Shown here: positions 11,301 to 48,743 of the stretch, piece after piece
Position numbering within the stretch: the stretch's first letter is position 1
Layout: every line of letters begins with the position of its first letter
NCBI RefSeq assembly: GCF_000375545.1
Contig: NZ_AQXF01000001.1
Location: forward strand, 989,241 to 1,053,240
Origin: Kordiimonas gwangyangensis DSM 19435 = JCM 12864
GTDB taxonomy: Bacteria > Pseudomonadota > Alphaproteobacteria > Sphingomonadales > Kordiimonadaceae
Reading direction: 5' to 3'
DNA: 64,000 nucleotides
Position numbers and translations under genes: made by a program
Notes under the pieces: generated by a model
The model's database searches: none
What the model saw: only the letters and a program-made list of their open reading frames with translations
Told to the model about the DNA's origin: nothing

Positions 11301-14300
11301 ACGGCACTTGGTTTTTTGGCGCGGCACGACGGCAAATCAAGCGGCCTTACGTCGCGCCGCAGGTGCTGTGTCCAGAAGGCGTGATCTCTATCTGCAGTAC
11401 CACTTTGTCGGTAGTTCTCTTCGTCTGTAACAAACTCGCTATAGCTTGCGTCAAGCGGCGCCAGTGAGCGCCCGCCCAGCAGCTGCTCCAGTTCGGTCAT
11501 CAGGATACGCAGGCTGATACCGTCCATGGCAATGTGATGGAAAACACACAAGAGGTGCGGCTGCCCATTCCAATCCGGGATATAGTCGAACCGGCAGGGG
11601 GCCTCGGCACGCAGGTCAAAGGGCGCACGCACCCGTTCCCGTAGCGCGTCGAGGGTGTCTTCTTGCGCTCGACTGGCGGGCAGCGGCAGAGTTCTCAGCG
11701 CGGGGCGAGCAGCGACAGAACGCCTGATTACATTGCCTTGCGCATCCTCGTCAAAGCAGTGGTGCAAGCTTTCATGGCGGGCAACCAGTGCATCTATTGC
11801 GGCCTCCAGCTGCGCTATATCTACCTTGGTGCCAAACCGAATGAAAACGGGCATATTGTATGCGAACGACGACGGCGCCAGGCGGTAATGCCGCCAGATT
11901 GGGAGCTGTTGTCGCGAGGCGAGAAGTGGACCATCTGTGCGCGCGGGTTCCGGCGCATCTTCTGGTTTGGGGGCCGGGCGGCTAGCGAACAGGCCGTCGA
12001 TAAGCGTCCGCAGTTGGCCGACGGTCTTACATTCGACAAGGCGTGCCGTGGTGACTTCCGTACCTGTGCGTTCGGTGACCAACTGGGAAAGGCGCGCCGC
12101 AGTCAAGGAATTGAAGCCAATTTCGTCCAGCGTATCTACGTCATCCGGATGTGAATCGCCTTCCAGCGCTTCAAGGAGAAGGTCTGCAGCGGTGGTGCCC
12201 TCGGCCCGGTTCGCACTGGCTAATACATGAGGCGTTTCGGTCAGTTGATGAAGGAGCGGTGCATCCGCTGGGCCGTAGGCCACGCCAACAATAGCTTCAC
12301 CGGAGGCGAGAATACGGTCAAAAGCTTCAAACCCGATAGCCTCAGGAAGTGCCTTGAGGCCTGTTTTTCGAGCCAGGCGGCCAAGCTCACCCGCAGGCGG
12401 TGCCATGCCAATGCCGTCCCACAGGGGCCACGCGACCGATTTCCAGTTCTCTTCCTCAAAGGCGACAGCATCCTCAAAGGCATTTGCGGCGGCATAGGTC
12501 GCCTGACCCGGATTGCCCATCCAGGCCGCGAGGGATGAGAAGGTCACAACCAGTGGGCGGCGTTCAAGGCTCTTGATGGCGGTGCGCAAGGCTGCAACAC
12601 CACCAACTTTGGCATCAAGCACGCGCTCAATCGCGAGCCTGTCAGCAGACGATAAAAGCTGGTCATCCTGTATGCCTGCACAGTGTGCTATCAGGTCGAT
12701 CCTGCCGCTGTGCCCCTCAATATCCTGCAGCAGGGCAGTCATGCCCTGTGGATCGGCGATATTCTGCGAACGGTAGGTGACTTTTGCGCCGAGTGCTCGA
12801 ACTGCGTTAAGAGCGTCCCGTAGTGTCTCGTCTTCCTGACGACGGCCTACCAGGGTCAGCGCCACCTCGCCTTTGCGCGCTAAATGTTTTGCGAGCGCGA
12901 GACCAAGTCCACCTGCTCCGCCCAGTATCACCGCCTGTTGGTAGGCTTTTACTTTGCCTGAAAGCAGGTCCGTCGCCTCAAGGCCGAGAACCTCGAAACC
13001 CGTTGCTTGTTTGCGCAGTACAGACCCTGGCTTGACGGTCGGTATGTGCACTTCTGAGATGGTGCTTTCGTCAACAAGGACACTGCCGCAGTCACGGGCG
13101 AATTCAGTGGCCGCAGTACGCAAAAGTGCTGCGACTGCCATGCCTGTGGCCAGGTCCGCAGTTCGGTATAGCCGCGCTTCACCAGCACAGGCCAACCGGG
13201 CGACTTCTTCCAGAAGCACACCGAGGGACTTTTGGGTTGCAAGGTCTGTGGGCGATTGGGGTGTAGCTGTCGCGCCAGCCAGGGCATGCCAGCTTGGTCG
13301 CAGGTAGGTTTGCCTGTCAGGTGACGGGGCTACTTGCGCGCCAGCATCATGGCGGTGGTCGACCCAGTACCGTGCGCCGGTGAAAGTGTAGGCGGGGAGT
13401 TCAATTTTCTGAGGGCGATGCTTGTCAGCCCAAAGGGCTTGCCACGGAATGTCGACGCCGTCCTGCCAGATGGCAGCAAGAGACCCGAGGTCACCATCCG
13501 CGAGCATGGAACGTATCAAACCCGGTCCACTGGTTCCGCTTAGCAAGCGGCGAACGGAAGCAGGTATGTTGGAAGACTTGCCAGACTGTTCGGCCTTACC
13601 GCCAAGGAAGGCAGCAAGCGCTGATTTCAGTTCCTGAAGCGAACTGCAGACAAAAGCATGGCGACATGCCATGGCGTCCCGCCCGGTCTGAAGCGTGTAA
13701 GCAATCGCTGCCAAACTGACAGCGGGTCTGTGGTCCGCCACTGCGTGCAGGGGTTTGTGCATGCTCGCGAGTGCTGCGGCGACATCACGTACGGTATTTT
13801 CCACCGTTACTTGGTCGCGCGACAGGGCGCCCGGGTAGGTCTGTGACAGCTTCTGCACCAGCTGACGCATTTCAAGGAAATCGAGGCCGAGTTCGGCGAA
13901 GGCCTCGTCGGGGTCTATTGCATTCTCAGGGATATGCAGCATGTCAGAGAGATGTGATGTGATGTGCGCGATCACTTCGGCATGGTCAACCGCTGGCGGG
14001 TGCATAGCCTGCGGCGTGTCGGCTGCATGTATCTCAAGCCATGTGTGCATATCCTGAGCGCGCCGCCGCAGGTCGTCATTCGACCGCGCGGACAAGGGGA
14101 TCAGATAGGCACTTGTGTCGGCCGTATTATCGGTCGCGCGTGGCGCAGGTTCACCCGCGATCACAACGTGCGCGTTGGTACCGCCGAACCCGAAGGAGCT
14201 GACTCCAGCTATCAGTTTTTCGCCCCGTAGTGTTTTCCGGCTTGACGCGAGCTCAAGCGGCGTACCAGCTGTTTCGATATCCGGGTTGAGGGCACCGAGG

Positions 14301-17300
14301 TGAAGGTTTGCCGGCACTACACCAGTTGAAACCACTTGCAGTGCCTTGATAACACCAGCGAGGCCCGAGACGGCCTCAGTGTGGCCGATAGCGCTTTTGA
14401 CCGCGCCGACCACAAGTGGCTGGTCCGCACAGCGGCGACGGGTCCAGCGCGGGCCAGAGAGCGCCATTTTAAGGCCTGAGATCTCGACCGGGTCACCCAG
14501 CCGCGTGCCGGTGCCGTGAGCCTCAACATAGTCGATCTGGTCGGGCTCAAGACCTGCCGCCTGCCATGCGTCAGTGATGACGGCTGCCTGTTGGCTTGGG
14601 CTTGGGGCTGTCAACGATGTTGCCTTGCCACCATGATTTACGGCGGTCGCGAGAATGCGGCCCATAATGCGGTCACCGTCCGCCTGCGCGCGCGAAAGTG
14701 GCTTCAGGTAAAGTGCGGCGACGCCTTCGCTACGCACATAACCGTCCGCATCGGCGTCGAACGTTCGGCAGGCACCTGACGTGCTCAGAAGCCCGGCACG
14801 GCAAAATGCCTGATGAAGATCAGGAAGTAGAATAAGGTTTGCAGCCGCGACTACGGCACCCTCGCAGGCGCCTCGGCGGATCGCCTCGACAGCATGGTCG
14901 AGCGCTACGAGCGAACTGGCGCAAGCGGTATCCAGTGTTTCACTGGGGCCGGTGAAATCAAAAATGTGCGACAGTCGGTTCGCGAGGAGTGATGGCGAAA
15001 TGCCCGTTGGCGTGAAGGCCTCAATTGCTGCGCCAGCTTGCCGGATGACATTGGCATAGTCGTAGCCCGCACACCCTACGAAGACACCTGTGCGACTACC
15101 ACCCAGCGATCTCGGGCCATAGCCCGCCGCTTCAAGCGCCCGCCAAACCGACTGCAAAAGCAGGCGCTGTTGCGGGTCCATAAGTTTCGCTTCCGCAGGT
15201 GAGATGCCGAAGAATGCGGCGTCGAACTGGTCAATGTCGGTGAGGAAGCCACCCCAGTTCATGGCGGCCTGAGCGCGCACACTCTCGGGTACTGCGCGCC
15301 ATTCAGCGGCCCGCTCATCGGGCACTTGGCTGATGCCGTCTACACCGTTGAGCAGATTGTGCCAGAATGCCTCCATGCCGTCCGCTTTGGGGAAACGGCA
15401 ATCCACGCCGACGATGGCGATATCTTCCTGCCTGCTCGGGTGCGGGACAATTGCCCGAGCCGGTTCAAACGTTTCACCTTGCGCGGCGGGTTGGGGCACA
15501 TGCGTCTTTGGCGCAGGCATCGGCGGCGCAGGCACGCGCCGTGCCTCGACGCCAAGGCGGTCAGCAAGCGCGGATCCACCAAGTTCAGCGATCCGGTCGA
15601 TCATGGCGCCGATGGTTCTGAATTCGAAAAACGCGGAGGGTGCGATCGCTACGCCGAAGCTTTGGTGCAGGTCGTCCTTGAGGCTCATGACCGTAAGAGA
15701 ATCAAGGTCTATGTCGGCAGTTGCCATGGTCTCGTCAATGTCAGACGCTTGCATGGAAACCGAGTTGGCCAAGAGCTCAAGCACTGGTTTGACCAAAGCC
15801 TGTCTGAGCGCGCCGCTGCGTGTGTCTACGCCGGTCTCTGCGCTTTGCGCCTTTGCTCGCGGTTGTCCGATGGCGTGCTGCAGCTTGTCAGTGTCGCCAT
15901 ATAGCACCACGCTTTGGTTGCTTCCGCTCGCGATTGCACTTTCAAGCGCGGCCATTCCCACTTCCGCGGGCATAGCCTTAAGGCCGGTGGTGTGTTCCAG
16001 GTGTTCGCGCACATCGGTAGGCATCGCCATGCCGCCGTCTGACCAGAGTGGCCATGAAATGCAGTGCCGGTTGCTTGCTTGCTCTGCGAACTCGCTCAGG
16101 TACGCGTTGGTATAGCCGTATAGGGCCTGACCGCGGTTCCCAACCTCTGATACAAGGCCACCAAAAAGCAGGAAGAAGCGCAAACTTTTATCATCGACGC
16201 AGGCTGCAAGATTGTTCGTGCCAGCGATTTTGACGTCGGCCTCCACGGTCGCGGCCACAGTCGCGGTGTCCAGCCCGGTAATCAACTGGTCATCTGCAAC
16301 ACCGGCACAGTGTGCGATGCCCGTAATTACGCCGAAGCGTTTTTCTACATCGCTGACCATCCGCTCGACGTCGGACAGCTTCGTCAAGTCACACGACCAC
16401 TCTGTGCTGGCACCATCCTGCATGCCTGTATGTGCACGGCGTGCCGCAGCAATTACGGTACCCGCACCCAAATCCGCAAGGTGCTGGCAGAGAAGGCGCC
16501 CGATGCCACCCGTGCCACCAGTGACCAGGATTACATCGTCGGCTGCCAGTCGAATGGCTTTAGTCTGCGCTGCATCCGTAGGTTCAAGCTTGCGCTCGCA
16601 CCAGTTGCCAGATTGGGTGCGCAATACGACAGGAATGCCCGCAACAGTCAGTCCATAAGCCTGTGCAGCTGCGTCAGGTGTGTTTGTTTCAACAAGCGCG
16701 ATACGAATATCGCCATACTCTTTGGCGGCTGAGGCCCAGAACCCACGCATCGCAGCTGAGAGGATATCGCCAGGGCGGAAAAGTTGCACAAAATGCCGTT
16801 TGCCGCTTTGTAACAGCGCCGCCGCCTCAGCGGGGCCTTCGCCGTTGGACAGAACGGTGACTCCAGCAAGACTGACCGTCTCAGGTGTCGGCAGCGATTT
16901 CCATACAGGGCGCAACAGCAGCAGACCATCGCCCGCAGCTTTGCTGTGCAGAGCAGCGAAGGTCAGGCCTTGCACAAGCACGCAAATCGCACCGCTGTCG
17001 TCCAGCACCCAAACATCAACGCTGATGCCGGGTACTGTGGATGTAGCACCGTTGCGGCGGATGACGGCACGACCGGTCGTCAACAGCGGTTTCAACACCG
17101 TAATCTGTGTTAATCCCACAGGCACCATCAGCGGAAGCGGCGCATCCAGCTCAGTCAATGCCGCGACACACTGGAATGCCATATCCAGAAGCTCGGCTGA
17201 CACAAGCGAGCTGCCGGGCCTGCTGTGGCCAGCTTGTTGCAGCGCGATACGGGCTTCCACCGCATCGCCATCACGCCTGATGTCGCGAAGCCCGCGCAGC

Positions 17301-19585
17301 ATGGGGCCATACTCAAGGCCTGCATCACTGAAACGCTTGTAGAATGTCCCGGTGTCTATTGTTTTGGCCGTCTCGCCCAGAACCGGGAGCGTGCCGGACG
17401 AAGGTACTTCACGTGTGCTTAGCGCTTTGAGGACGACAGTGCCGTCCACCGTGCATAATCTGCGTTCATCGCCTGCGGCTTCCAGCTTCAATGCTGCCGC
17501 CGAATGCGCACGGGCGAGCAACGGCGTTTCAAATGAGACGCCGCGCAAACATGTTGAGCCGGTTGCTGCCATAAGCGCGCCCAGCAAGGCTGTACCCGGA
17601 TATAGCGGCTTGCCCCCTACCGTGTGTTCAAAAGCAATAGGGTCATCTGCGGCGAAGGACACGAGGTCTTTCGCATGGCTCGTGGTTGCGGGTCCTACCC
17701 AGAAGTCTTCGGTTCGGTATTGTGTTGTCGGCAATTTTACCCGGCGCAAAGTCCGGTTCACGAATATGGCAAGCCAGCGTTCGTCGGTCGTGCAGCCTTG
17801 TTCAAAGGCATTGGCCAGCACCGATAGTGCAATCGCGAAGCTGGCGCGTATATCCTCCATCTGCGCAGGCATCAGGGCCAGTACCGAGCCTATCTGCTCA
17901 TCATCCAGTGCCTTGCGGCGCGGCGGCGGGGCAGGTTTAGCACGTAACTGTTTGACGGCGTCCGCAGCATCCTTGGCGACGATAGCGCGCCGCACTGCTT
18001 GTGCTGGCCTTCCGGTCATCAATGTGTAGGCGACATCGGCAAGATCGAGTGCTGGATTGGTTTCAAGCGTCGCCGCGAGCGAACTGCATTTGTCCTCCAG
18101 GTCGGCCGCGTCGCGGCCAGAGAGCAGCAACAGCGTGGCTGGTATTTCGGGCACCTTATTCGGCGGCTGCTTATACTCCCGCACCACCACATGCGCGTTG
18201 CTGCCACTGAAGCCAAACGCGCTGACCGCACCGTGGCGCAGGTCACCACTTGTCGGCTCCGGCCAATTGATTGCCTGCGACGCCACCTGGAATTTGCGCT
18301 CATCAAGCGGCAGCAGGGCGTTGACGGGGCTGGCATGCAGGGTCTGAGGAATAAAGCCATGGCGCAGGGACTGCACCAGCTTGATAAAACCGGCGATACC
18401 GGCAGATAACTGCGTATGGCCAATATTGCTTTTCACGGAGCCGAGGTAACAGGGCGTGTCGGTAGTCCGTTCCGCATAGGCTGCGTTCAGCCCCTCAACT
18501 TCGATCGGGTCGCCGAGCTTGGTGCCCGTCCCATGGGTCTCCACATAGCCGACGCTGTTCTCATTGATGCCATAGCGTGACATGACATCCCGGATGAGAT
18601 CCGCTTGCGAGTGCGCATTAGGTGCGGTCATGCCATTGCTGCGGCCGTCCTGATTGATGCCTGAGCCAGCGATGACGGCTAGGATCTGGTCTCCGTCAGC
18701 CTCCGCGTCAGCAAGCCGTTTCAGGACCACAACAGCAACTGCCTCGCCCGGCACGAACCCATCAGCGTCAGCGCCAAAGGCATGGCAGCGCCCAGTGGGT
18801 GAAAGCATGCCCGCCGATGTGGCAAGCTGGTAGAGTTGTGGGGTCACAAGGAGGTACGCACCACCGGCCAGTGCCACATCCGTTTCGCCGCGGCGCAAGC
18901 TTTCGCACGCAAGGTGGATGGCTACCAGGGATGAGGAGCAAGCCGTCTCGACCGCGATGGCGGGACCGCGCAGGTTCAGCATATACGACACCCTCGCGGC
19001 AAGGATGGATGCTGCATTGCCAAGAAACGCCTGTGGCGTGTAGAGCTTGCCCGCATCTTTGAGGAGGCCTGCATATCCGCTTTCGGCAGTACCCACATAA
19101 AGCCCGACGGACTGGCCATCAAGCGCCGTGCCAGCGTAGCCCGCTTCTTCAAGCGCGTGCATGGCTTCCATCAGGAACAGGCGCTGCTGTGGGTCCATGT
19201 GCAGGGCTTCTTTGGCGGAAAGGCCAAAGGCATGAGGGTCGAAGTCCTTGATGTTGCCAACGAACCCGCCCCATTTACTGTTGCTTTGTCCCGGACCGGG
19301 CTCCGGCGCGTAAAGGGCGCTGACATCCCAGCGGTCGCTCGGCATTTCTGTGACGCTGTCCGCACCGTCCACAAGGTTCTGCCAAAGCGCATCGACCGAA
19401 TTTGCGCCCGGGAAGCGACCTGCCATTGCCACCACGGCGATGTCATCGGCGCCGATGTGTTGGCTGCCGAGCTGGTCGCGCGTACCGGTATTCGAGCGCG
19501 CGCCCTGTGCACGACCCGAGCTGGCACGGCGCCCCCCGGTACCGCCGGACTTCAGTTCCTTGGCGGTGATAGGAGTTCTACTCAT
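2396..19585 (-). CDS. Trans-AT PKS/NRPS megasynthase B (5729 aa). Domain order (aa, approximate): KS(45-470)-DH(640-900)-KR(1010-1210)-ACP(1296) | KS(1385-1810)-ACP-like lacking Ser(1870-1945)-KR(2205-2400)-CP(GFNSL 2493) | C(2553-2990)-A(3010-3500, Gly-like code)-PCP(3537) | KS(3593-4005)-ACP(4084)-ACP(4167) | C(4235-4670)-CP(4729)-A(4795-5300, Ser-like code)-C-like terminal domain(5310-5729). No AT, no TE
   Basis: KS motifs TACSSS/TACASS, HGTGT and N(I/V)GH all present; DH HTVGGKPLYP; KR GGTGGIG and GGAGGLG; ACP DLDSL and GMDSI (x2); C domains FHHIAMDG and NEHCVSDG; A domains YTSGSTGKPKG and YTSGSTGRPKG; 8-nt overlap (AATGAGTAG) with the upstream megasynthase; coordinate mapping verified on the YTSGSTG codons at ~4727. 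Confidence 0.95.
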   Translation of the reverse strand: MSRTPITAKELKSGGTGGRRASSGRAQGARSNTGTRDQLGSQHIGADDIAVVAMAGRFPGANSVDALWQNLVDGADSVTEMPSDRWDVSALYAPEPGPGQSNSKWGGFVGNIKDFDPHAFGLSAKEALHMDPQQRLFLMEAMHALEEAGYAGTALDGQSVGLYVGTAESGYAGLLKDAGKLYTPQAFLGNAASILAARVSYMLNLRGPAIAVETACSSSLVAIHLACESLRRGETDVALAGGAYLLVTPQLYQLATSAGMLSPTGRCHAFGADADGFVPGEAVAVVVLKRLADAEADGDQILAVIAGSGINQDGRSNGMTAPNAHSQADLIRDVMSRYGINENSVGYVETHGTGTKLGDPIEVEGLNAAYAERTTDTPCYLGSVKSNIGHTQLSAGIAGFIKLVQSLRHGFIPQTLHASPVNALLPLDERKFQVASQAINWPEPTSGDLRHGAVSAFGFSGSNAHVVVREYKQPPNKVPEIPATLLLLSGRDAADLEDKCSSLAATLETNPALDLADVAYTLMTGRPAQAVRRAIVAKDAADAVKQLRAKPAPPPRRKALDDEQIGSVLALMPAQMEDIRASFAIALSVLANAFEQGCTTDERWLAIFVNRTLRRVKLPTTQYRTEDFWVGPATTSHAKDLVSFAADDPIAFEHTVGGKPLYPGTALLGALMAATGSTCLRGVSFETPLLARAHSAAALKLEAAGDERRLCTVDGTVVLKALSTREVPSSGTLPVLGETAKTIDTGTFYKRFSDAGLEYGPMLRGLRDIRRDGDAVEARIALQQAGHSRPGSSLVSAELLDMAFQCVAALTELDAPLPLMVPVGLTQITVLKPLLTTGRAVIRRNGATSTVPGISVDVWVLDDSGAICVLVQGLTFAALHSKAAGDGLLLLRPVWKSLPTPETVSLAGVTVLSNGEGPAEAAALLQSGKRHFVQLFRPGDILSAAMRGFWASAAKEYGDIRIALVETNTPDAAAQAYGLTVAGIPVVLRTQSGNWCERKLEPTDAAQTKAIRLAADDVILVTGGTGGIGRLLCQHLADLGAGTVIAAARRAHTGMQDGASTEWSCDLTKLSDVERMVSDVEKRFGVITGIAHCAGVADDQLITGLDTATVAATVEADVKIAGTNNLAACVDDKSLRFFLLFGGLVSEVGNRGQALYGYTNAYLSEFAEQASNRHCISWPLWSDGGMAMPTDVREHLEHTTGLKAMPAEVGMAALESAIASGSNQSVVLYGDTDKLQHAIGQPRAKAQSAETGVDTRSGALRQALVKPVLELLANSVSMQASDIDETMATADIDLDSLTVMSLKDDLHQSFGVAIAPSAFFEFRTIGAMIDRIAELGGSALADRLGVEARRVPAPPMPAPKTHVPQPAAQGETFEPARAIVPHPSRQEDIAIVGVDCRFPKADGMEAFWHNLLNGVDGISQVPDERAAEWRAVPESVRAQAAMNWGGFLTDIDQFDAAFFGISPAEAKLMDPQQRLLLQSVWRALEAAGYGPRSLGGSRTGVFVGCAGYDYANVIRQAGAAIEAFTPTGISPSLLANRLSHIFDFTGPSETLDTACASSLVALDHAVEAIRRGACEGAVVAAANLILLPDLHQAFCRAGLLSTSGACRTFDADADGYVRSEGVAALYLKPLSRAQADGDRIMGRILATAVNHGGKATSLTAPSPSQQAAVITDAWQAAGLEPDQIDYVEAHGTGTRLGDPVEISGLKMALSGPRWTRRRCADQPLVVGAVKSAIGHTEAVSGLAGVIKALQVVSTGVVPANLHLGALNPDIETAGTPLELASSRKTLRGEKLIAGVSSFGFGGTNAHVVIAGEPAPRATDNTADTSAYLIPLSARSNDDLRRRAQDMHTWLEIHAADTPQAMHPPAVDHAEVIAHITSHLSDMLHIPENAIDPDEAFAELGLDFLEMRQLVQKLSQTYPGALSRDQVTVENTVRDVAAALASMHKPLHAVADHRPAVSLAAIAYTLQTGRDAMACRHAFVCSSLQELKSALAAFLGGKAEQSGKSSNIPASVRRLLSGTSGPGLIRSMLADGDLGSLAAIWQDGVDIPWQALWADKHRPQKIELPAYTFTGARYWVDHRHDAGAQVAPSPDRQTYLRPSWHALAGATATPQSPTDLATQKSLGVLLEEVARLACAGEARLYRTADLATGMAVAALLRTAATEFARDCGSVLVDESTISEVHIPTVKPGSVLRKQATGFEVLGLEATDLLSGKVKAYQQAVILGGAGGLGLALAKHLARKGEVALTLVGRRQEDETLRDALNAVRALGAKVTYRSQNIADPQGMTALLQDIEGHSGRIDLIAHCAGIQDDQLLSSADRLAIERVLDAKVGGVAALRTAIKSLERRPLVVTFSSLAAWMGNPGQATYAAANAFEDAVAFEEENWKSVAWPLWDGIGMAPPAGELGRLARKTGLKALPEAIGFEAFDRILASGEAIVGVAYGPADAPLLHQLTETPHVLASANRAEGTTAADLLLEALEGDSHPDDVDTLDEIGFNSLTAARLSQLVTERTGTEVTTARLVECKTVGQLRTLIDGLFASRPAPKPEDAPEPARTDGPLLASRQQLPIWRHYRLAPSSFAYNMPVFIRFGTKVDIAQLEAAIDALVARHESLHHCFDEDAQGNVIRRSVAARPALRTLPLPASRAQEDTLDALRERVRAPFDLRAEAPCRFDYIPDWNGQPHLLCVFHHIAMDGISLRILMTELEQLLGGRSLAPLDASYSEFVTDEENYRQSGTADRDHAFWTQHLRRDVRPLDLPSCRAKKPSAVYEDAATHTRTLSPDLRKGLLANGKPGQLFATTATAWAWTLAPYVEDHFVGLMVPFAGRHASKFQETVGCLMNPVILQTDLGVHETFKDALAAFDEGYKLSLEHSRLALADVLSAVGAAGRPANAAAKAQSAFYFQSWLGAATGHAGDIQMERLDLLHHEGEYPLTLEVVDDGSRFALKLKVDSSYCDSATAELLLARYEAVLSSLMSGDDPDRTPHTAQDREIYDAWQHTDLEPVIDRCVHHAIFEQARATPADAAVMVADETQSYGELLDQVACIASGLLGAGVKAGDTVAVVLERGISLPATLLAVMSVGGTYLPMDPAFPAERNRFYLEDSGAQFVICSELTDAADATQLLLTDLLTTEPVPDWDRATTEAGDPAYIIYTSGSTGKPKGVVVSHGALSNFIMAMVDVTGLDASDRLLAVTTVAFDISGLELFLPLWQGASVVISTGFESKDPYRLWDMVAKHKVTTLQATPSTWRLMMRAHKGGVGLKRILVGGEALPADLARTLCAVGEDVINVYGPTETTIWSTAAHVDARERVHIGKAIKNTLLRIVNESGEDCAIGMAGELWIGGHGVANGYWQRPDLTADRFVETTSGQKFYRTGDLVRFLSDGNLQHLGRLDTQVKLNGFRIEVGEIEVQVVEKLGFTDCAVIPVTTEGGTDGLVAFVTGSAKEQNTAPDWEGCKTVLRTTLPEYMVPGAWVQLEALPSTNNNKVDRQKLTALYAAQQADANIKPEHVHTPVDQISRDLRQIAAEIIGLPAQVLDALQPLNLQGFDSLAIIKLTEQLNETFGLQLSPVDLYNAPTLREISALLPRAATAAPIASADIKRGRIQDGAVAIIGMAGQMPGAKDLATFWDNLNEGRVSISNVPSGRWQDTDAAQNHKAGFLEGIDLFDAPFFGMTTQEAASTDPQQRLFTLNCYRAIEDAGIDPESLKGRKVGVYAGAALGDYQRLLEQADGFNAFSMIGMSPSIIPARIAFHLDLKGPTETVDTACSSALVSVHNAVKALQAGDIEMALAGGVYLMTTPLGQMISAQAGIIANDGRCKPFDGRADGIVIGEAVGVLTLKRLEDAVRDGDPIRAVIRGVAVNQDGRTNGITAPSSSAQAALIGKATDVDGLSADDISYVECHGTGTKLGDPIEIEGLRRASLGENAPCWLGSVKANVGHCYQAAGVVGLIKAVLSLEHQRLPGQPDFGEENPLLKLGTGGLRILKQAQSWDVTEGRKRVAGVSAFGFSGTNAHVVVEEWPAAASSPRPNKHHAFNLTSYWPQVSPAAAPLVSKPAGTGDTSDARRMVLMELSALSGIPAADIPADASLEADIGMDSIKLMGLIAKLGRMIDLPQIDAAGIARITTVASLLDLLPKAQSTNGDALPEAHALIMAEFEALSGIPAANISRDANLEADIGMDSIKLMGLVARLSRIAGTASLEASNIAKIVTVGDLLDAISLSSGSTAAPSATLESSPHTATAQVTHCADGRLPISIPYAGYLFLLGHHLIRSSSLCSWLRLEGPLDTGALQEAWQRVVDSQPGCRLIFERRGSSETFSDYQGVLLENPQVPQIAVTDLSALTPAEQDDALQQAFDAALNAEWSLESWPLHRFDVYRMGPNEHAVFLINEHCVSDGIGNQRLLAALMQAYSEVQHGDAATAPVISDGEFATLMSRFNDAADSLSEPMPISEEHGPYFWNPVGREIENFQPDFTVGVTVKSGAETDTLISAASNLGMSLNQLLVLAMARASHTTSGDDHVSVQMPTGGRTIDGIDAHDLVCCLAQNLPVDFSADLLSSSWELAGPLFAAKLARTLAAESDWHVTKAMATTIAGDIPLDPDALRGDLRPLFRGRLRSNIYVPYIGDTGIATTYSDLRVTAYRAGTVNGPATVDVLHEIFDGQLHGSWNYDRGFFTPDEIMRLRSAFEQELAEAVAAGSKHRVSREKTATTTELPPVLVEAVQAVLGPHVNSSDAHALIDRDLGLDSLQRIRILSKLPAVYRRDATRRAALLTAPTLAAMADLMCADDGVDTPDTGSDVPPTAGEEGASAAAYDYDELPIDRIIKQMAATPDAVAVTSANGQLTYAELDDKSHRIASYLIEAGCERGARIGILMDRGCAFIASVIGVLRAGLVYVPLDPSLPTDRLGYIADHAKLALVLCKPVHQNLLNGSAAGESGQPKVALVSEAFATSPAPKNTLPTAAPEDAMLVLYTSGSTGRPKGVQLNHAGYANRLAWHQKQFELKPGEGVLHKTTICFDVSVWEIFWPLMYGGILHTVGSEVARDPWALAQAMRDKKIAVLHFVPSMFGEFLSVLDADAPHAPFDHLRWVVLSGEAFPVAQARKWFELFGKRARLANLYGPTEASIDVTCQVVAEAPPENWARVPIGWATDNVELTILDASLKPVPEGEDGELFIGGVQLADGYLHAEDLTSKAFMMIDPDGHGARRFYKTGDLVRRLPGGAYDHLGRLDSQVKLRGYRIELGEIEAVLSDHADVRQVAVLVENDALVAHIAGNGEDQQSYLEHCAKKLPHYMVPHKVTLHAQLPINANGKLDRRAVQAGEFTPTAVESCSLLPAQSWMLQHFPAPYRWWGTSRFTVNRALDMDRVKAAFATLAARHDALRTVYAQNVDGSWRRRVIAPSEAGSLDLRIIDVQATPGDEREDMIAETMHNCCMAYAIDRLPLDTAVILQEGPARYTFCLANHHVNGDFVSGTILFKDFWDLYEGKELAPPAQQQGDIAKLLEGTDLSADQAYWQKLAGRETTPPALVTDRGIANLERQEVATERYLTASETKRLSTTGRANSGTALYPLLAAAFYMALTEQSGRRDAIISHRMMGRVLGSNLPDFTDTVGNFAVHFPLVVKTGETLPHTAKSVASALAEVPHGGVTYDWLAAQAHGAPSFPYPDEQVTALRLNYLGQILPRTDGDFEFNASQLNQRFAPDDLPRSAEVEVHLSVEKSCLKIRASFVEGRHNGALINELLDRVKVILTEL
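2399..3658 (-). other. C-terminal condensation-like domain (HHVNGDFVSG variant), candidate chain-release/cyclization domain; no TE present
   Basis: C-domain N-terminal pattern LLPAQSWMLQHF...; active-site region LANHHVNGDFVSG with second His retained and DG changed to DF. Confidence 0.6.
3686..5203 (-). other. Adenylation domain, serine-like code D-V-W-H-V-S-L-I-D-K (9/10 to DVWHLSLIDK; EntF-like FDVSVWEIFWPL and LYGPTEASIDVT)
   Basis: Motifs LYTSGSTGRPKG, CFDVSVWEIF, NLYGPTEASID, YKTGDL, NGKLDR; located AFTER a carrier domain (GLDSL at aa 4729) and directly before the terminal C-like domain. Confidence 0.7.
6971..7438 (-). other. Tandem ACP pair after KS8 (module with no reductive domains)
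   Basis: LEADIGMDSIKLMGL repeated twice, ~83 aa apart. Confidence 0.7.
8861..11929 (-). other. NRPS module C-A-PCP; adenylation specificity code extracted by eye is D-I-L-Q-L-G-V-I-W-K (9/10 to the glycine code DILQLGLIWK)
   Basis: FHHIAMDG; FDISGLELF, KVTTLQATPS, RILVGGEA, NVYGPTETTIW; PCP LQGFDSLAI. Confidence 0.75.
13751..13978 (-). other. Second ACP-like domain lacking Ser (GLDF) after KS7 in megasynthase B
   Basis: IDPDEAFAELGLDFLEMRQLVQKL; same relative position (KS then ACP-like then A(Y/F)TLQxGR linker) as the GLDM domain in megasynthase A. Confidence 0.5.
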
Positions 19586-22500: not shown

Positions 22501-25500
22501 TTTGCGCCGCCAAACGCAAATGAGGAGACACCGGCGCGCCGTGTTTGATACTGCCCAGTTGGCCAGGCCTGCGTTTTAGCCAAAGGCTGCAAACGCGTGG
22601 CATCGAACTGGGCGTGCGGGTTAATCTCATGGAAATGAACAAGACCTGGCATCATGCCTTCGCGCACCGCCATCACTGCCTTGATCATGCCCGCGACACC
22701 CGCGGCGGCTTCCAAATGCCCGATGTTGCTTTTTACTGAGCTCAGGAACACCGGGTGTTCCCGCCCTCCTTCTGCCGCGACAGATTGCGAGAGACCGATC
22801 AATTCTAACGGATCACCAAGCTGTGTGCCGGTGCCGTGGCATTCAACAAACCCGACCGACAGCGGCGAAATGCGATGCCGTTCCATCACATCCCGGATGA
22901 GTTGGGCTTGTGCCTTGGGGTTTGGTGCTGTGAGGCTATTGGCGCGGCCGCCGTGGTTGACGCCAATACCCTTGATAACCGCGTGAATGGGGTCACCGTC
23001 TGCAACAGCGCGGGAGAGCGATTTCAGGTAGACGGCACCAACACCCTCACCGCGCACATAGCCGTCTGCCGCCTTGTCGAAGGTATGACAGCGCCCTGTC
23101 GGGCTCAGCATGCCCGCTTGCCCGAAGGCGAGATAAAGCGTGGGCGACAGCATGATGTTGACGCCGCCTGCAATGGCCGCATCACAGTCGCCGTGCTGGA
23201 TCGCTGCTACCGCGCGGGAAATTGCCACAAGCGATGAGGAACAGGCCGTGTCAACCGGTTCGCTCGGTCCATGCAGGTCCATCAGGAAGGAAATGCGGTT
23301 GGGCAGCATGCTATGGCTCAGGCCGGTGGCGATATGCGGTTCAATTGGCAGCCCGGCGCGCATCACCAGCTCCCAATAATCCGACGTTGCCACACCAACG
23401 AATATGCCAGTGTTGCTGCCCGCCAAATCCCGGGGGTTCGTGCCACCGTCTTCAACCGCGTGCCACGCCGTTTCAAGGAACAGACGTTGCTGCGGGTCCA
23501 TCAGTTCTGCCTCGCGCGGGCTGATGCCAAAGAACTTGGCGTCGAACAGGTCGACATCCTCAATGAAGCCGCCCCATTTGGAATTGGTGCGCTCGACCCC
23601 CGGTTCAATCGGGCCATAATACTTTTCGGCGTCCCAGCGCGTGGCAGGAATTTCGCCGACCAGATCAGCCTGCGCCAGAAGGTTATTCCAGTAACTTGCG
23701 ATATCAGGGCTACCGGGGAAACGCCCGGACATGCCGACAACAGCAACGCCGTCGAGATCATTTCTCTGAGGCTTGGCAATGACTTCTACAGCGGGTGCTT
23801 GTTCGGGCAGCTTCGGAGGGGTGTTGGCAACTGGTGCGCTACTTGGGTTCTGGTCTGGCAGTGTCGCTTGCGGGAAACGGTCCGCCACCAGTTGGCTCAG
23901 GCCAGCAAGAGTATCGGCCTCAAAAAAGACCGCGGGCGACAGGGCAATGTCCATGCGGCGGCTGATGCGGTTCGCATACCGGGTCAGGGTGATCGAATCA
24001 AAGCCGTAGTCTTCAAAGCGCTTGGTAGGGGCCAGCCCATCGGGTTTCAGCTTGAGCACATCGATGAGGATATCACCAAGCGCTGCCATCACCTGCTCAG
24101 TGCCGGCACCAGATGGCGCATACCCTTCTTTTTTATCGGCTGTGCTCGCCGGTTGCTCTTCGGAAAGCCAGCGGCCTATCCGCTGTGTATTTCCGTGCAG
24201 GACAACTGCGCGCTCAAGGCCCGCAACAGCCTGAAAAGCATGCAAGGCAGCCTCTGTGGAGAGGGGTGCTATACCGGTTTCGCGCTTGGCACTTTCCTGC
24301 GCATCTTCCGACATCGGCATGCCGCCGCTCTGCCACCAGGGCCAATTGATGGACGAGACGCCTGAGGTGCCGTCAAGCCAACCATTCGCAAAGGCATAGT
24401 CGGTTTGACCGCGTTGCCCAAAACTTGCGGCCACGGAGCTGAAGCAGGTAACGCCGCCTGTCGGTTCATTCGGGAGCGCGGCTAGCACATTCTCAAGGCC
24501 CTCGACCTTGGTGCTGATGACCGACGACGCATCTTCTGAAGATTTGTTGATCAGGAGGCTATCACGCAGCACCCCGGCGCAGTGAATGACACGCGCGACC
24601 GTAGGTATGTCCGCAAACGCGCCACGCACGGACTGTGCGTCCATAATGTCGGCAATAATGACACGCGGTGCTGGTGTCAGCGCATCCAGTCGTTGCTGTT
24701 CGGCGGTGCTTGGCGCACGCCGTGTGACGAGAATGGTCTCAAGTCCCTCACTTGCGAGGTGCTCCGCCAGTAAAAGCCCGATATTGCCAAGCCCACCGGT
24801 TATCAACACTGGTCCCTTGGCTGGTTGAGCCGGGTTGCGCGCCGGCGCTTGTATAAGCGTGTGCCGGTTGAGGAAGGGTCCGCGTGCATCAAACAGACAA
24901 TGGCGCTGACAGGAGTTTGCCGCAATGGTCCCAAGTATGGCCTCATTCACCGCCGGGCCTTCGTTCAGCAGAACGGAGAGACGCAGGCGGGGGTCTTCCA
25001 GCATGAAACTCCGGGCGAAACCCGCCAGTGCATGGGCTGCATTTTCTTGGTCTGTGATGAGAACCAGATGTCCGCCTTTGTCCGCTTCCGCAATAATCAG
25101 CGTGCGGAGCTCATGATAGAGGGTGGCGGCATTCGCCTCAGCAAGGAACGCCGTGCGTGACCGTGGTGCAGCACTTTCGGCAATTGGAACATGCTCCCAG
25201 TGTGGTACATACAGAACCGTCGTGTCTGACTGGTTCCGTTCTATCGCTTGCAGGGTAAAGCCATGCGCGAAACCAACGCAGTGGCCATTACCATCATGGA
25301 AGTCGAGGTTAAAGGTGTGAAGCAGCGCACCCTCAGTGCCTTCGGCACGCCGGGCGACCACATATTGGATATCCCGCGAGCCGTTAGGAAGCCTTAGTTT
25401 CTTGATACCAACGGGCAGGTAAAGCGTGGTGCCTCCAAGCGTGGGGTCAATCAGCGCAGATACGACCTGCAGCGCGGAATCAAGTCTGCCGGGGTCACAA

Positions 25501-28500
25501 ACACCGTAGTTTTCGACCATAGGCGGGCCCAGCTTTGCGGTCGCAAAGTCATCTGCCGCGTAAACACATTCCACCTGCGCGAATGTGCCTTTCAGGATCA
25601 GGCCTTTTGCCGCAAAGGCCTCATAGAATTTCTCATGACCAAAGCTTCGGTTTGTGCCGTCTTGTAGCCGCGCCACGTCTACAGGTGCCGCAAGGCCATG
25701 TGCGTCTTCATTCGTGACATGGATGCGGCCAAAAGCGTGATCGTCTTCTGCTGAACAGGCCGAAAATCCGTAGGCGTCATGGTCCGGTATCTTGCGGATC
25801 AAGGTCACGAGGTCTGGAATTTTGCCGTCCGGCCGCGCACCGAGCGGAAGCCGCCATGTGAGGTCAGTGAGTGTGATGGATGTGCCGAGCCGCGCCTGGG
25901 CAGCGGCTTCCAGCACCAGCGCGGCGTAGGATGCACCGGCAAGGATCACACCGTCGGGGCCACGGTGGTCATCCATGATGGGTTCGCTTTGGCTAAAGCG
26001 GCTGACAGTTGTGATGATGCCGTCCTGCACCGTCACGGTATCCAGAATAGCGGTCTGTGTTTTCGCAGTGGGAGCTGGCGCGCGCGTCACGGCCGTTACC
26101 CAGTGTTGGTCCCCTTCGAAGACGTAGCCCGGTAGGTGCACGCGTCGGCCAGTCACAGGTTCGGTTGGTAGTGTGGTTATGCAGCCATCAGGGCCTTTGT
26201 GCAGCGCTGCAATCAGTGTCGCGTGATCCGTGGCCACGACCACCGCCACATGGTCATGATGCTGGCGGCCATGATACAGGGTGTAAGCGATGTCCGCCAA
26301 ATTATGCTGGCTGCCCTCATTTTCCAGCCAATGCGCCAGCTGCGCAAAACTGGCTTTCAGCGCACTTTTGCTCTTTGCAGTGAACGGGAAGGAAAGGGGC
26401 TCGGTAGTTGTGGTCCGTGCCACCTGCGGCGCGTCTGGGCCACGGAGAATAACGTGCGCGTTTGTGCCACTGAACCCAAACGAGCTGACTGCCGCACGGT
26501 AAGGGCGTTGCAACGTTGCCAGTGGCTCACCGCAGGTCGAAATGGTGAGTGCGCTGCCGTCCAGGCCAAGCCGGGGGTTGAGGCTTTCTGTATAGCGCTG
26601 CGGCGGAACCTGGCCGCTTTGTACGACTTTTACCGCCTTGATCAGCCCGGCGACACCGGCGGCCACCGTGCTGTGGCCGATATTGGCCTTCACCGAGCCA
26701 AGATAGAGGGGGGCAAGTGCTCTGCGTTCCGCAAAACATTCGCGCAGGGCTTTAACCTCAATGGGATCCCCAAGGTTGGTGCCCGTGCCATGCGCTTCAA
26801 TATAGTCCAGCTCGTCTGCGCTGATACCAGCCTCCGTCTGAACCTTGCGGATTAGCGTAGCCTGGGATTTTGCGCTCGGCGCTGTGATCCCGTTCGTGCG
26901 GCCATCCTGGTTGACCCCGCTTGCTTCGATAATGGCATGGATCGGGTCGCCGTCTCGCAGCGCCGCGTCCAACCGCTTGAGCACAACAAGGCCAACACCC
27001 TCCGCAAGCGCGATACCGTCTGCATCCGAGGAGAAAGGGCGACAGCGCCCGGTTGGGCTCAGCATGCCCGCCTTCGAGCTTTTGACCATCAGTTTGGGCG
27101 TGGCGGTAATGATCACGCCACCCGCGATTGCCATGTCGCAGTCGCCGCCAAGGATCGCACGGCGCGCCTGATGCACCGCCACAAGCGAGGACGAGCAGGC
27201 CGTATCAATGGATACAGCGGGGCCAACGAGGTCAAGCAGGTAGGCAATACGTGCGGCAAGAACAGCGGGCGACAGGCCGGTGAATGCTTCGGCTGTCCAG
27301 CTTTCCTCCGCGTTTGCGAGCAGGTCTTCATAGTCGCCGTTGGCGGCGCCAAGGAATAGCCCACAGGACACGCCCTTGAGCTTCTCCGGTGCAAGCCCCG
27401 CGTCTTCAAGCGCATGCCAGCACTCCTCAAGCGTGATGCGCGCCTGCGGGTCCATCGCGCGCGCTTCCAGTGGCGATATCTTGAAGAAATCAGCGTCGAA
27501 ACGTTTGATGTCCGACAGGAAGCCGCCAGTTTTGGTGACGGACTTGTTTTCCGCTTCCGGGTCAGCGTCATAGAAGGCATCTGCGTCCCACCGGTCAGCA
27601 GGTACGGTGTCAACGAAGTCGGCACCTGCCATAATGTTGCGCCAGAACGCTATATGATCGTCAGCGCCAGGATAACGGCATGCCATGCCGATTATCGCAA
27701 TTTTCTCAGCGCTTACGCTTTGGGCGGGCTGCTCTTCGGCAGGGGCGGCGGTTTGTGGCGTTTCCTCTGCTGCGGCGGTGGCAGGCTCTGCGGCCACGGC
27801 AACATGTGCCGCCGTATTCTGGCTAACATACTCACTGAGCGCCGCGATGGTTGCATAGTCATACAGGTCAGCGGCTTCCAGGCCACATTGCCAGCGCCCA
27901 TTAATCTCACGAACCAGTTCCACACCGCCGATGGAATCCAGTCCCTGGTCCATGAGGGGTTCATGAACATCAAGGTCCTCTCGGTCCATCTGCAGTAGCC
28001 TGCATACTGTTGCAGCGATATCCGCCAACACATCACCCTTCGGCAGGCTAGCTGACCGTGCCGGTGCTGGTGGAAGGGTTGGTTCGCCCGCATCCGGTGT
28101 TGCCTTGATATTTAAGGCGGGGTGAGCTCGCGCGGCATCAAGCGGGCGCAACCGTACTTTCTCCGCAACCTGTGCCGGGGTTGCGATCCTGGTTGGCGCG
28201 ACTGAACTACCTTCCTGTGCATAAAGTCCGGCAAGCAGTGCGGGCGTCGGATAATCATAGAGGCTCGCTGCCTCGCAGTTTGCTGCAAGGCTTGCGTTCA
28301 AATCCCGGATCAGTTCGGTCGCACCAATGGAATCAAGGCCGTGATCAAGGAAGGTGGTTTCATTGTCGATCTCGTCCGTCTCGGTCATCAGGATACGAGC
28401 CAGCGCTTCGCGAATGGTGGCGAGTGTTTGCGTTGTGCCCGCGGACGTATTTTGCCCCCCCCAGACCGGGCGGAGAGTAACCTTGGTTGGATGCGCCGGT

Positions 28501-31500
28501 TGCGCTGGTGCCGCGCTGATCTTGACTGGCTCACTAACCCGTTTTGGCTCCTGGCGCGTGACTGCTGCGCTTGTCGTGACCATAGGGTCTTTGAACAGGG
28601 TATCCAGTCGCTCGCGTACTTCCTTCTGGGTGAAGGTTTTGGCGTGCATCGCAACTTCGGCGGCAATGGTCTGCGGCAGGGTCGCAAGCCGCGCCTCCAC
28701 AAAGCCGCGTTTCATGGTCTCCAGCGTGACCTTGGGCTTTTGAGCGAGCGAGCGCGCAAGTTGCATCGCTTCGCCGAGCACCGATGCTTTGTCAGCAATT
28801 TTGACAGAAACGCCGCGCCGCTCCAGTTCCGCGCCGCTCAGGGCGCGTGCGCTGTACATCATCTCGGTCGCGAGTGTCGTGCCGAAACGTTCCGGCAGCA
28901 GCTGTGTCGCACCCATGCCGGGCGAAAACCCGTAATCCGCGAAAACGGCGGAGTAGAGCGACTCGCGCGCAAGAATCGGAATATCGCTATAAAGCCCGAA
29001 CAGCAGCCCGCCGCCATAGGCGTGGCCCTCCATCGCTGCGATCACGGGCAGCGGAAATTCGCCAAGGCCACGGAAATAGAAAGGTACATCGGTAAAGTTG
29101 GCAGTACCTGCCGCGATGGCTTTCAGCATTTCCGGGGTGCCACCCATGGAAAAGACTTCGCTTGTTCCGGCAAGCACGACCACCCGCGCGTCCGGATGAG
29201 CTGCAATTTTCTCAAACGTGGCAATGAGCGAAAGTGTCAGTTCGTCGTCAAACATGTTGCGGGCCTTCGAGCGCATGCGAACAAGCGCGATGCCGCCGTC
29301 AAATGTCAGGTCGACCACCGATGGTGTGAAACCGCGTGCCCTCTGCTTCCAGTCATCAGGCGCGGCAAGCGCGGGCGTACTGGTTGCAACAAAGGGCGCC
29401 GTTGCGACGGGCGCGGCTCCAGTATGCTGAGCCGTATTCGCTTCAAACCAATAGGATTTTCTATCGAATGCATAGCCTGGCAATGCAACGGGGCGCGGTG
29501 TGCCAGCCCTGTAGAGACGCAGCCAATCTACGCGCGCACCACTGACCCATGCTGCGGCAAGCGCCGAAGGGTCTAGCCCATTGTCTTCTGCCATTTGGCT
29601 TTTTTGTGAGAAGCCTTCAGGTGACATGAGCGCGGGATGTGTGGCCCCAGCCGCAAGCGCATCAAGCGCTGCCAATAGTTCCGCGGTGCTGTGTGCGGTG
29701 ATGACGGCGCGTTTCTGCAGCGGTAGGCGCCCGACCTGAAGTGTGAATGCTGTGGCGGCGAGATCAGGCTGGGTCGTTGGTTTTTCCGGTGCCACCCCAA
29801 GGGCCGCCGCGAGCTCACCAACTGTATGATGGCCAAAAAGATCATGGGTGCGCACTGGCTGCCCGGTGTGAGCCACGAGAAGCTCAATCAGCCTGCGGGC
29901 CGCGACCATATCCAGCCCAAGGTCCTCAATGAGGCTATCATCGGAAATGCTATCAGCTTCAACATCAAGTACTTCTGCAATCAGCTCCGTAAGGTTGATG
30001 GCGCTGCTTTCAGGGCTGGCACCGCGCAGTGCCCGCGCGAGGTTGGTTGCATTTTCCTTCAGAGATGCTTCGGTTCGGGCCGAAAGCGGGAACAGGTAGG
30101 GGCCAACCGCGGCCTCAACCCTACCCACGCTGCTTGCGGGCGCTGCGCTGACCACAAGGGCCGAGTTGCTCCCGCCTGCCCCAAACGATGAAATCAGTAC
30201 AGTGTCTATGTCATCGGCGCGCCGGGCCTGCCGCACGAGGTCGAAAGGTGCCGCTGCCCAATCGATATTCTGGTTCAGAGTATCTCCGTGCAGGGACGGA
30301 GCGAGGGTTTTGTGCGCAAATTGCAAAATTACTTTGGTGAGTGCAGCCATGCCTGCAGCAGCTTCGAGGTGGCCAATCTGGCTTTTTACCGAGCCGATGG
30401 GCCAGCGTTTGTGCGGTGCGCGTGTTCGCGCGCTCTCAAAAGCTTTGGTGAGGCCTGCCACTTCAATCGGGTCGCCAAGCGATGTGCCCGTACCGTGCGT
30501 CTCAATGTAGCCGAGGTCTTCAGCGTGCACTTGTGCGCGCTTGAGCGCTTGCGAGATAACCCGCGCCTGCGCACCCGGTGACGGTACGGTAAAGCCACCA
30601 TCGCCGCCGCCGTGGTTCAGAGCGCTCCCCTTGATGATAGCGAGGATGCGGTCCCGGTCTTGCCGCGCGTCGCGGAGGCGCTTGAGCACAACCACACCAA
30701 CACCCTCGCCTGGCACATAGCCGCTACCACCATCACCAAAGCTGCGGCATTTACCGTCTGCGCTCAGGAAGCTGCCTTCAATGAGCTGGCGGTATTTCTC
30801 CGGGCGTAGTGACAGGTTCACTCCGCCGGCAAGTGCCATATCGCATTGACCGGTCCGGAGCGCGTCAGAGGCAAGGTGGAGTGCAGTCACCGACGACGAA
30901 CACATGGTGTCGACAGTCAGGGAGGGGCCAAAAAGGCCAAAGCAGTGCGATACGCGGTTGGCAATCTCAGCGAAGGAGGAATTGGGTACAGCGCCTTCGG
31001 CAACACCAGTACCGGCCATCTGGTATTGGCTCCACATCGCAGCGGCATAAACACCGACGTTCTGCGCTTTGACCCGTCCAGCATAACCCGCGTCTTCAAG
31101 CGCATGCAGGCTCGCCTCTAGAAACAGTCGGGTCTGGGGGTCCATCAACCGTGCGTCTTTTGGCGAAATGCCAAATACGAGCGGGTCGAACATGTCGATG
31201 TCTGAGAGGAAAGCACCGAAAGCACCTTCCCCATTATGCCCAAGCACCTGGCTGCCGGTATGCCAGCGATCGGCTGGTACCGGACCCGTCGCATCCCGCC
31301 CGGCCTTGAGGTTGGACCAGAAAGTCTCGATATCCTCTGCGTCAGGGTACCGGCCAGCGAGGCCGATGATGGCGATATCATCCAGTATCGGTAAGCTTGA
31401 GGGTGCGGCACTCACCTCTGGCGCGGCTTCGTGCAAGGTTGGGCTCTGCCTGCTTGGCGCAGGTGGGGTGCGCTCGGCCATGGCTGGCGCAGTGCCAGCT

Positions 31501-38444: not shown

Positions 38445-38604
38445 CCCCCATTTCGTCCCCGTCGCTAACCCAATGCGGTTTTCGTAGCTGATATGTTTGG
38501 GAAGCGATAATTTACCTAGCCAGATTAGTAGCTTAGATAATGTCAGTTGGCGCGGCAACTTTTTTCCGGTTGCGCACCGTGAAAAACGTCCTGAATACAA
38601 CAAC

Positions 38605-38619
38605 ACATCTATTAGATGT
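38605..38619. promoter_or_regulatory. Perfect 7-bp inverted repeat ACATCTA-T-TAGATGT in the AT-rich leader upstream of the megasynthase operon; candidate operator
   Basis: Palindrome read directly; sits in a 210-bp AT-rich intergenic region between the SnoaL-like gene and the megasynthase start. Confidence 0.3.
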
Positions 38620-41028: not shown

Positions 41029-41032
41029 GCGT

Positions 41033-48164: not shown

Positions 48165-48257
48165 CGTCTGTCTCCCCCGAGGTCAGATATGACCACGCCC
48201 CAAAATGCGCAACAACCAACTGAGTGCGCCATAAAATGGCGCGACCGCGGTTGGTTT

Positions 48258-48665: not shown

Positions 48666-48720
48666 TGTTAAGGACTAAAAGCACAACATATTGGATTTTA
48701 GCTAATCATGTCCTCCCTCA

Positions 48721-48743
48721 AACCTCAAGTATTTATTGAGGTT
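48721..48743. promoter_or_regulatory. 8-bp inverted repeat AACCTCAA-N7-TTGAGGTT in the divergent promoter region
   Basis: Read directly; preceded by direct CCTCAA repeats; lies in the 480-bp intergenic region between the divergent operons. Confidence 0.25.

Follow-up and report, generated by a model that had tools for sequence, protein, structure and literature searches.

The function of the flanking subdomain (FSD) of ketosynthases (KSs) in trans-acyltransferase (trans-AT) polyketide synthases (PKSs) has been described as unclear (PMC11260071). One extra element within it is on record: LINKS motifs are helical motifs with a non-catalytic, architectural role, inserted late in the FSD at the place that holds the AT in cis-AT PKSs (Gay et al. 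2016, as summarized in bioRxiv 10.1101/2023.02.11.528132). Here we analyzed a 64,000-nucleotide stretch of Kordiimonas gwangyangensis DSM 19435 = JCM 12864 (contig NZ_AQXF01000001.1, positions 989,241 to 1,053,240; hereafter the window) in which two KSs have an extra FSD element of another kind, an acyl carrier protein (ACP)-like domain without the active-site Ser, which we call psiACP. Like the LINKS motif, psiACP is an addition within the FSD, and its role is presumably similar. Unlike LINKS, it is a complete domain of ~70 aa, it sits one loop earlier (between helices a1 and a2), and it co-exists with a LINKS region of normal length.

Mycobacterial Pks13 contains a domain, ACP3, that is ACP-like, has no active-site Ser, cannot carry and has no known function (bioRxiv 10.1101/2023.01.27.525930). 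This is the nearest published parallel that we found, although it differs from psiACP in both enzyme class and position. ACP3 is not known to lie in a KS linker, and no sign of a shared ancestry with psiACP emerged, although none was looked for. Catalytically dead domain copies kept as scaffold are also familiar from PKSs and fatty acid synthases, where psiKR and psiME have reductase and methyltransferase folds and are packed against active partners. What psiACP would share with these is the concept of a dead copy as scaffold, but it is carrier-derived and is held on flexible linkers.

The canonical carriers of PKSs and nonribosomal peptide synthetases (NRPSs; PF00550) resemble psiACP in the full-length match to the hidden Markov model (HMM), the four-helix fold, the G-x-D cap and the acidic loop I. 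They differ in that psiACP lacks both the Ser and the TxLFFEYPT signature, lies inside a KS FSD and not at the end of a module, and scores ~20 bits apart from them even with the Ser column masked. A literature search for an ACP-like or pseudo-ACP insert in a trans-AT KS linker returned no description, with most subscription papers out of reach, and an earlier mention may exist in print. The two psiACPs of the window are ordinary members of a widespread family for which we found no description.

The two inserts in Kordiimonas

The inserts are encoded within two megasynthase genes, A and B, and their sites are as follows.

19578..38606, minus strand: megasynthase A, 6342 aa (open reading frame list, Pfam, local domain HMMs)
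2396..19585, minus strand: megasynthase B, 5729 aa (open reading frame list, Pfam, local domain HMMs)
30144..31379, minus strand: A_KS3, host KS in A (aa 2410-2821), with Cys (DTMCSSS) and HGTGT present and the NxH His replaced
29439..30101, minus strand: FSD of A_KS3 including the insert (A aa 2836-3056; alignment)
29796..29993, minus strand: psiACP_A (A aa 2872-2937; PP-binding match of 43 bits, AlphaFold2 (AF2), Foldseek, translation)
29907..29909, minus strand: codon of Met2900, which opens helix II and falls in the Ser column (alignment, AF2, translation)
14150..15424, minus strand: B_KS2, host KS in B (aa 1388-1812), catalytic Cys-His-His intact
13352..14107, minus strand: FSD of B_KS2 including the insert (B aa 1827-2078; alignment, AF2)
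13763..13978, minus strand: psiACP_B (B aa 1870-1941; PP-binding match of 36 bits, AF2 in KS context, translation)
13877..13879, minus strand: codon of Phe1903, which opens helix II (residue 519 of the model) and falls in the Ser column (alignment, AF2, translation)

A sequence-only reading of the window had taken both segments for ACP homologues with a replaced Ser. Its residue numbers map exactly to window positions 13751-29999, and the strings that it quoted, EDLGLDMVAARRL in A and ELGLDFLEMRQL in B, were both found in the translations. The proposal hinged on the segments scoring as PP-binding domains and on the absence of a Ser one residue away, and it held on both counts. When submitted alone, the two 101-aa segments matched PF00550 (gathering cutoff, 20.8 bits) over profile positions 3-67 of 67, psiACP_A with 43 bits (E=5.5e-11) and psiACP_B with 36 bits (E=8.6e-9), and weaker NCBIfam ACP matches agreed with this. 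The Ser column was assigned in a MAFFT alignment of both inserts with the 11 real ACP and peptidyl carrier protein (PCP) domains of A and B. In this alignment M2900 of A and F1903 of B occupy the invariant Ser column, right after G-L-D, and neither residue has a Ser or Thr on either side.

A functional carrier has the Ser of its GxDS motif at the N-terminus of helix II and stands at the end of its module, behind the processing domains and ahead of the following KS or condensation domain; neither holds for either insert. Because the site is occupied by Met or Phe, it is a sound inference that the psiACPs are not phosphopantetheinylated, and they should do no covalent chemistry.

AF2 predicted the four-helix carrier fold for both inserts. 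For psiACP_A, modeled from a 44-sequence alignment built without locus-derived rows, the predicted local distance difference test score (pLDDT) was 84, with a core above 90, and helices were placed at residues 11-19, 39-53, 59-63 and 68-75, helix II beginning at Met2900. When this model was compared with the Protein Data Bank (PDB) using Foldseek, the top 50 listed matches were all ACP or PCP chains, with a probability of 1.00 and template modeling (TM) scores of 0.6-0.73. A 696-aa model of B_KS2 with its insert and FSD (pLDDT 84, predicted TM score 0.83) contained the same four-helix bundle, with helices at model residues 484-499, 519-532, 539-544 and 548-558 and helix II beginning at Phe1903. 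Two linkers of ~9 residues each (model residues 473-481 and 560-568), with a pLDDT below 50, connect this bundle to the FSD.

The KS-FSD part of the B_KS2 model superposed on solved trans-AT KS structures with TM scores of 0.85-0.90 when normalized to the target. Normalized to the 696-aa query the score fell to ~0.75, and ~100 residues of the model therefore have no counterpart in those structures. The solved KS-FSD structures, among them PksJ KS2 (4NA1-3), MgsE/F, OzmH, BGC11 (7ZM9/7ZMA/7ZSK) and RhiE, are like B_KS2 in KS and FSD and lack its insert. A profile search against all PDB sequences likewise recovered many trans-AT KS-FSD structures, none of which contains the insert, since their matches cover profile positions from 93 (mostly ~120) to 252 and so start after most or all of it.

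In an alignment of the eight KSs of A and B, both inserts appeared as extra sequence at the same non-canonical place, between the first helix after the KS (LSARxxxxL...) and the LxxIA(Y/F)TLQxGR helix, where a short connector is all that is present in the other six KSs. The FSD of A_KS3 runs from a strand and helix a1 through psiACP, the AFTLQVGR helix and a LINKS-like region to an LPGYAF motif. The inserts had been described as lying between the KS C-terminus and the A(Y/F)TLQxGR motif. Their position ahead of that motif stands; they are, however, inside the FSD, after its first strand and helix, and do not simply follow the KS C-terminus. The loop in question is one before the LINKS/AT position, and an element that precedes the AYTLQxGR helix is not a helical motif at the AT-equivalent place, as a LINKS motif would be.

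An old family of inserts in trans-AT synthases

The inserts were also sought in other bacteria. A pattern scan built on FSD motifs from outside the insert, with each species represented by one genome, yielded 80 loci, and in 19 of these the match spanned most or all of the query, insert included, at a length fitting an inserted domain. A full HMMER scan of 1.84 billion representative proteins gave 55 full-length insert matches in 47 of the best 150 proteins. A word-indexed homologue search with a 219-aa segment of A returned nothing at E<=1e-3.

In all, at least eight phyla have this insert at this loop: Bacillota, Actinomycetota, Myxococcota, Chloroflexota, Acidobacteriota, Bacteroidota, Desulfobacterota and Pseudomonadota. 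Its sources were Bacillota/Clostridia, Micromonospora, Streptomyces, Dactylosporangium, Propioniciclava, Sorangium cellulosum So ce56, Anaerolineae, Aminicenantes, Pyrinomonadaceae, Aquimarina, Desulfobacteraceae, Thiohalocapsa, Methylobacter/Methylococcus and Roseibium. Insert-bearing KSs accounted for 54 of 664 KSs (8%) in one sample and 32 of 156 (20%) in the other, which are rough upper-range figures because both samples are enriched for the insert. Such KSs are also present in cultivable organisms, among them Sorangium cellulosum So ce56 (L066, NC_010162.1 5759699-5775048) and Roseibium aggregatum (P0054). Both organisms are known polyketide producers. L066 lies perhaps in the chivosazol cluster and P0054 perhaps in a sesbanimide-type cluster.

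The distance from the KS end to AYTLQ in the 156 KSs of the 80 loci was bimodal, with 124 KSs at 40-80 aa, none at 80-100 aa and 32 at 100-200 aa; the insert is a discrete unit. Both window inserts have the ~70-100 aa between FSD helix a1 and the AYTLQxGR helix that define the family. The stretch from AYTLQ to LPTYPF had a median length of 96 aa in KSs with the insert versus 95 aa in those without it. The insert thus adds sequence at another loop and is not a LINKS variant, and we rejected the idea that it replaces LINKS. The two copies in the window share their position because they are members of one old insertion family, not two local accidents.

The absence of Ser extends to the family. 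We aligned 62 inserts from outside the window to an HMM for which the real carriers of the window were the sole source, and in the Ser column counted 23 Pro, 8 Ala, 6 Thr, 5 Leu, 4 each of Val, Gln and Arg, 2 each of Ile and Ser, and one each of Lys, Asp and Tyr; the real ACPs of the same proteins had Ser in 814 of 824 cases. Both Ser-bearing inserts are in one protein from a Pyrinomonadaceae metagenome-assembled genome (P0142, aa 1363-1608 and 4496-4739). With the Ser column masked, an insert HMM still gave both of them 21-24 bits more than a real-ACP HMM did, and their Ser could be a reversion or a coincidence.

The separation between the two groups was assessed by two-fold cross-validation, again with the Ser column masked. 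For held-out inserts the insert HMM outscored the real-ACP HMM by 18 to 21 bits (97-100% positive), while real ACPs gave differences of -23 to -25 bits. On models built without window sequences, psiACP_B scored 63.5 versus 47.0 bits (+16.5) and psiACP_A 49.6 versus 43.7 bits (+5.9), both in favor of the insert HMM; 9 of the 11 real window carriers scored the opposite way.

Column profiles indicate what has been kept and what has been lost. The inserts retain the hydrophobic core and the Gly (96%) and Asp (76%) ahead of helix II, and they show a sharpened A-x-I-L-x-V...I-D...G-x-D-P-V-x-L-x-x-L pattern. The T-x-L-F-F-E-Y-P-T signature of loop II and helix III, worth 2.1-2.8 bits in real ACPs, drops to 0.5-1.0 bits in inserts. 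At position S+5 of helix II, where real ACPs often have an acidic residue, inserts often have Arg. The net charge of the inserts is -7.1 versus -4.6 for real ACPs, and that of loop I is -5.2 versus -3.7.

We estimated dN/dS (the ratio of nonsynonymous to synonymous substitution rates) by the Nei-Gojobori method on three ortholog pairs. In the best-conditioned pair (L004/L033, dS 0.67) the value was 0.28 for the insert versus 0.19 for the remaining FSD, in a second (the Streptomyces loci L043/L077, dS 0.10) it was 0.32 versus 0.53, and in the third, where dS was saturated, the insert gave 0.16. These few data are consistent with purifying selection on the insert equal to that on the neighboring FSD. 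Together, the profile, structural and census results lead us to conclude with high confidence that the inserts belong to an old, widespread family of Ser-less domains with the ACP fold in the FSDs of trans-AT KSs.

On the host side, every insert-bearing module has its own real ACP downstream. We rejected a tie to module type, as inserts precede DH-KR, KR, DH, MT, ECH and minimal modules and also follow upstream modules of all kinds. A single insert-bearing KS clade was likewise rejected: the nearest KS in another protein also bore the insert in 16 of 54 cases, against a base rate of 8%, an enrichment of only 3.7-fold. Nor is the insert a hallmark of the non-elongating KS0, since ~80% or more of host KSs have Cys-His-His. 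The second His is missing in ~11-13% of host KSs. Loss of the HGTG His is the usual KS0 signature; this His is missing in ~1 of 54 host KSs versus roughly 10% of KSs without the insert.

A_KS3, the first KS of a beta-branching module (KS-psiACP-ECH-ACP-ACP), is among the KSs without the second His. It keeps Cys and HGTGT but reads GGSNSA and not NAH (aa 2816, window 30159-30161), and six other insert-bearing KSs elsewhere also lack the second His (NAC, NAF, NAS, NAY, NVC). The real carriers of the two host modules in the window are the following.

A aa 3392-3470 and 3524-3607, minus strand: real ACPs of the psiACP_A host module (local domain HMMs)
11963-12139, minus strand: real ACP of the psiACP_B host module (B aa 2483-2541), reading GFNS

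The GFNS ACP, in place of GxDS, scores weakly on the local ACP HMM (14 bits), and the first ACP of B reads DLDS.

The surrounding biosynthetic locus

Pfam and local domain HMMs gave the domain order KS-?-ACP-KS-DH-KR-ACP-KS*[psiACP]-ECH-ACP-ACP-KS-DH-KR-ACP-KS-KR-MT-ACP for A and KS-DH-KR-ACP-KS*[psiACP]-KR-ACP-C-A-PCP-KS-ACP-ACP-C-PCP-A-C for B. A Pfam scan of both proteins found no Acyl_transf_1 match. With modules that lack an AT, free-standing AT genes and FSD Pfam families after the KSs, the locus has, as judged from its domains, the make-up of a typical trans-AT PKS, a hybrid PKS/NRPS with a beta-branching cassette. The trans-acting genes, including one for a phosphopantetheinyl transferase (PPTase), are listed below.

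39027..45709, minus strand: trans-acting partner genes upstream of A (ECH, HMG-CoA synthase, KS-like decarboxylase, AT-ER, PPTase)
42531-44867, minus strand: AT-ER fusion
44864-45709, minus strand: PPTase
49414-50445, plus strand: second AT-like gene

An ABC transporter is also encoded upstream of the megasynthases. The ECH, HMG-CoA synthase, decarboxylase, AT-ER, PPTase and second AT are candidate binding partners of psiACP.

The Kordiimonas gwangyangensis protein WP_020398751.1 has the same length as B, and a 2064-aa fragment in the representative library (P0001) is 99.95% identical to B. Besides that fragment (485 bits), the best full-length match in the library reached 114 bits, and there was no other close relative. 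The literature search found no paper on this Kordiimonas cluster, and an exact look-up of a neighboring gene gave no match.

Several other features of the locus were recorded. Megasynthase A contains, after its first KS-FSD and ahead of its first ACP, an unannotated, domain-sized region of ~345 aa (aa 591-935; window 35801-36836, minus strand) for which Pfam, even at E<=1, gave no match. The C-terminal NRPS part of B (aa 4216-5729; window 2399-6940, minus strand) has the unusual order ACP-ACP-C-PCP-A-C, with a carrier domain ahead of the adenylation domain and a condensation domain at the very end of the protein. The gene directly downstream of B (860-2194, minus strand) encodes 444 aa with a C-terminal LCCL domain as its sole Pfam match, which is unusual beside a PKS. 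The GC content is ~0.59-0.60 in the PKS region and falls to 0.50-0.54 past ~48 kb (window 48000-64000), a possible sign that the gene cluster, or an acquired island, ends there.

Possible roles of psiACP

The sequence-only reading had left two options, a structural or docking pseudo-ACP and a relic of module fusion. The evidence favors the first. We hold, with moderate confidence, that psiACP is an old, conserved non-carrier pseudo-ACP that serves on the FSD as a protein-interaction element; more broadly, it probably acts as a protein-protein interaction or structural element. A recent relic of module fusion is disfavored by the occurrence in at least eight phyla at the same loop, the almost constant lack of Ser, the separate sequence family and the FSD-like dN/dS.

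As to mechanism, psiACP would be an interaction element tethered to the outer face of the KS-FSD. We prefer ACP mimicry because the acidic face of loop I and helix II has been kept and strengthened: this face would engage the basic ACP-docking surface of a partner, which would in this way be kept near the module. In carrier folds, the Ser and the two termini lie at opposite ends of the bundle, and a domain inserted through both termini would therefore turn the loop-I/helix-II face outward. Among possible partners, a trans-acting enzyme, for instance the trans-AT, would be the likeliest; alternatively, a neighboring synthase chain might be bound, adding to the lateral contacts of LINKS. The specific partner and mechanism are offered tentatively, and we would sooner expect them to need revision than to stand. 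The bolder picture, of an ACP mimic that gives the FSD a definite task, as an inbuilt landing pad for trans-ATs and other trans-acting enzymes or as a gate at the KS's own ACP site, seems to us unlikely.

Several observations weigh against an interaction element of this kind. The partner stands at candidate level, and the models do not fix the placement of psiACP relative to the KS entrance. With Arg at S+5 and the helix-III signature lost, the mimicry may be imperfect. There is no association with module type or trans-acting chemistry, which might perhaps be expected of a dedicated recruiter, and host KSs are scattered over the KS clades (16 of 54 nearest neighbors with an insert). psiACP_A stands only 6 bits apart from real ACPs on the sequence models, the dN/dS comparison consists of three ortholog pairs of which one is saturated, and the samples behind the frequency estimates are enriched for the insert.

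One alternative is a decoy or gate in cis, in which psiACP docks as a placeholder on the ACP site of its own module, at the KS entrance or in the KS/FSD cleft, and controls which real ACP, upstream or cognate, gains access and when. The short, low-confidence linkers (~9 aa, pLDDT below 50) would hold it near the KS-FSD, the acidic ACP-like surface is kept and accentuated, and its occurrence in all module types fits a role tied to the KS and not to downstream chemistry. Also in its favor, a missing HGTG His is rare among host KSs (~1 of 54 versus roughly 10%). However, turnover would suffer from a competitor that never leaves the active-site entrance, the lost helix-III/loop-II signature is part of the surface that real ACPs use, a placement near the entrance is conjectural, and ~80-90% of the KSs in the same assembly lines work without an insert. 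We regard this alternative as unlikely.

Lack of function altogether is, in our view, quite unlikely. Here a carrier captured long ago in the FSD loop would have been tolerated as a spacer and carried along as KS-FSD units recombined between clusters. That would suit the missing tie to module type or chemistry, the patchy spread over KS clades, the 14 different residues that vary freely at the Ser position and the unconstrained helix-III region. A neutral relic is nevertheless disfavored because the fold core, the G-x-D cap and the family signature persist in at least eight phyla, the insert length is discrete with no intermediates marking decay, and dN/dS (0.28-0.32) equals that of the neighboring FSD; the AF2 fold is also confident. 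A working carrier, modified at another residue or by an unusual transferase, might draw on the PPTase gene in the cluster and on the Thr (6 of 62) and Ser (2 of 62) found at the site in family members. It is essentially excluded, and to our minds extremely improbable, because neither Met nor Phe can take up phosphopantetheine, the family most often has Pro at the site and no Ser or Thr flanks it; each module, moreover, already has its own ACP.

The presence of psiACP has practical consequences. Automatic annotation will label psiACP as "ACP", which can corrupt module and product predictions. In engineering, exchange units cut at the LPTYPFx5W site move the FSD together with the KS, and psiACP may need to be kept or removed deliberately in module swaps. 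psiACP is also a natural handle for asking what the FSD binds, and a clean test case for the reuse of dead carrier domains as structural parts. If the landing-pad or gate picture is true, a defined subset of trans-AT modules would use a dead carrier domain to recruit their partners or to time them, and a previously unrecognized layer of assembly-line organization would exist in at least eight phyla.

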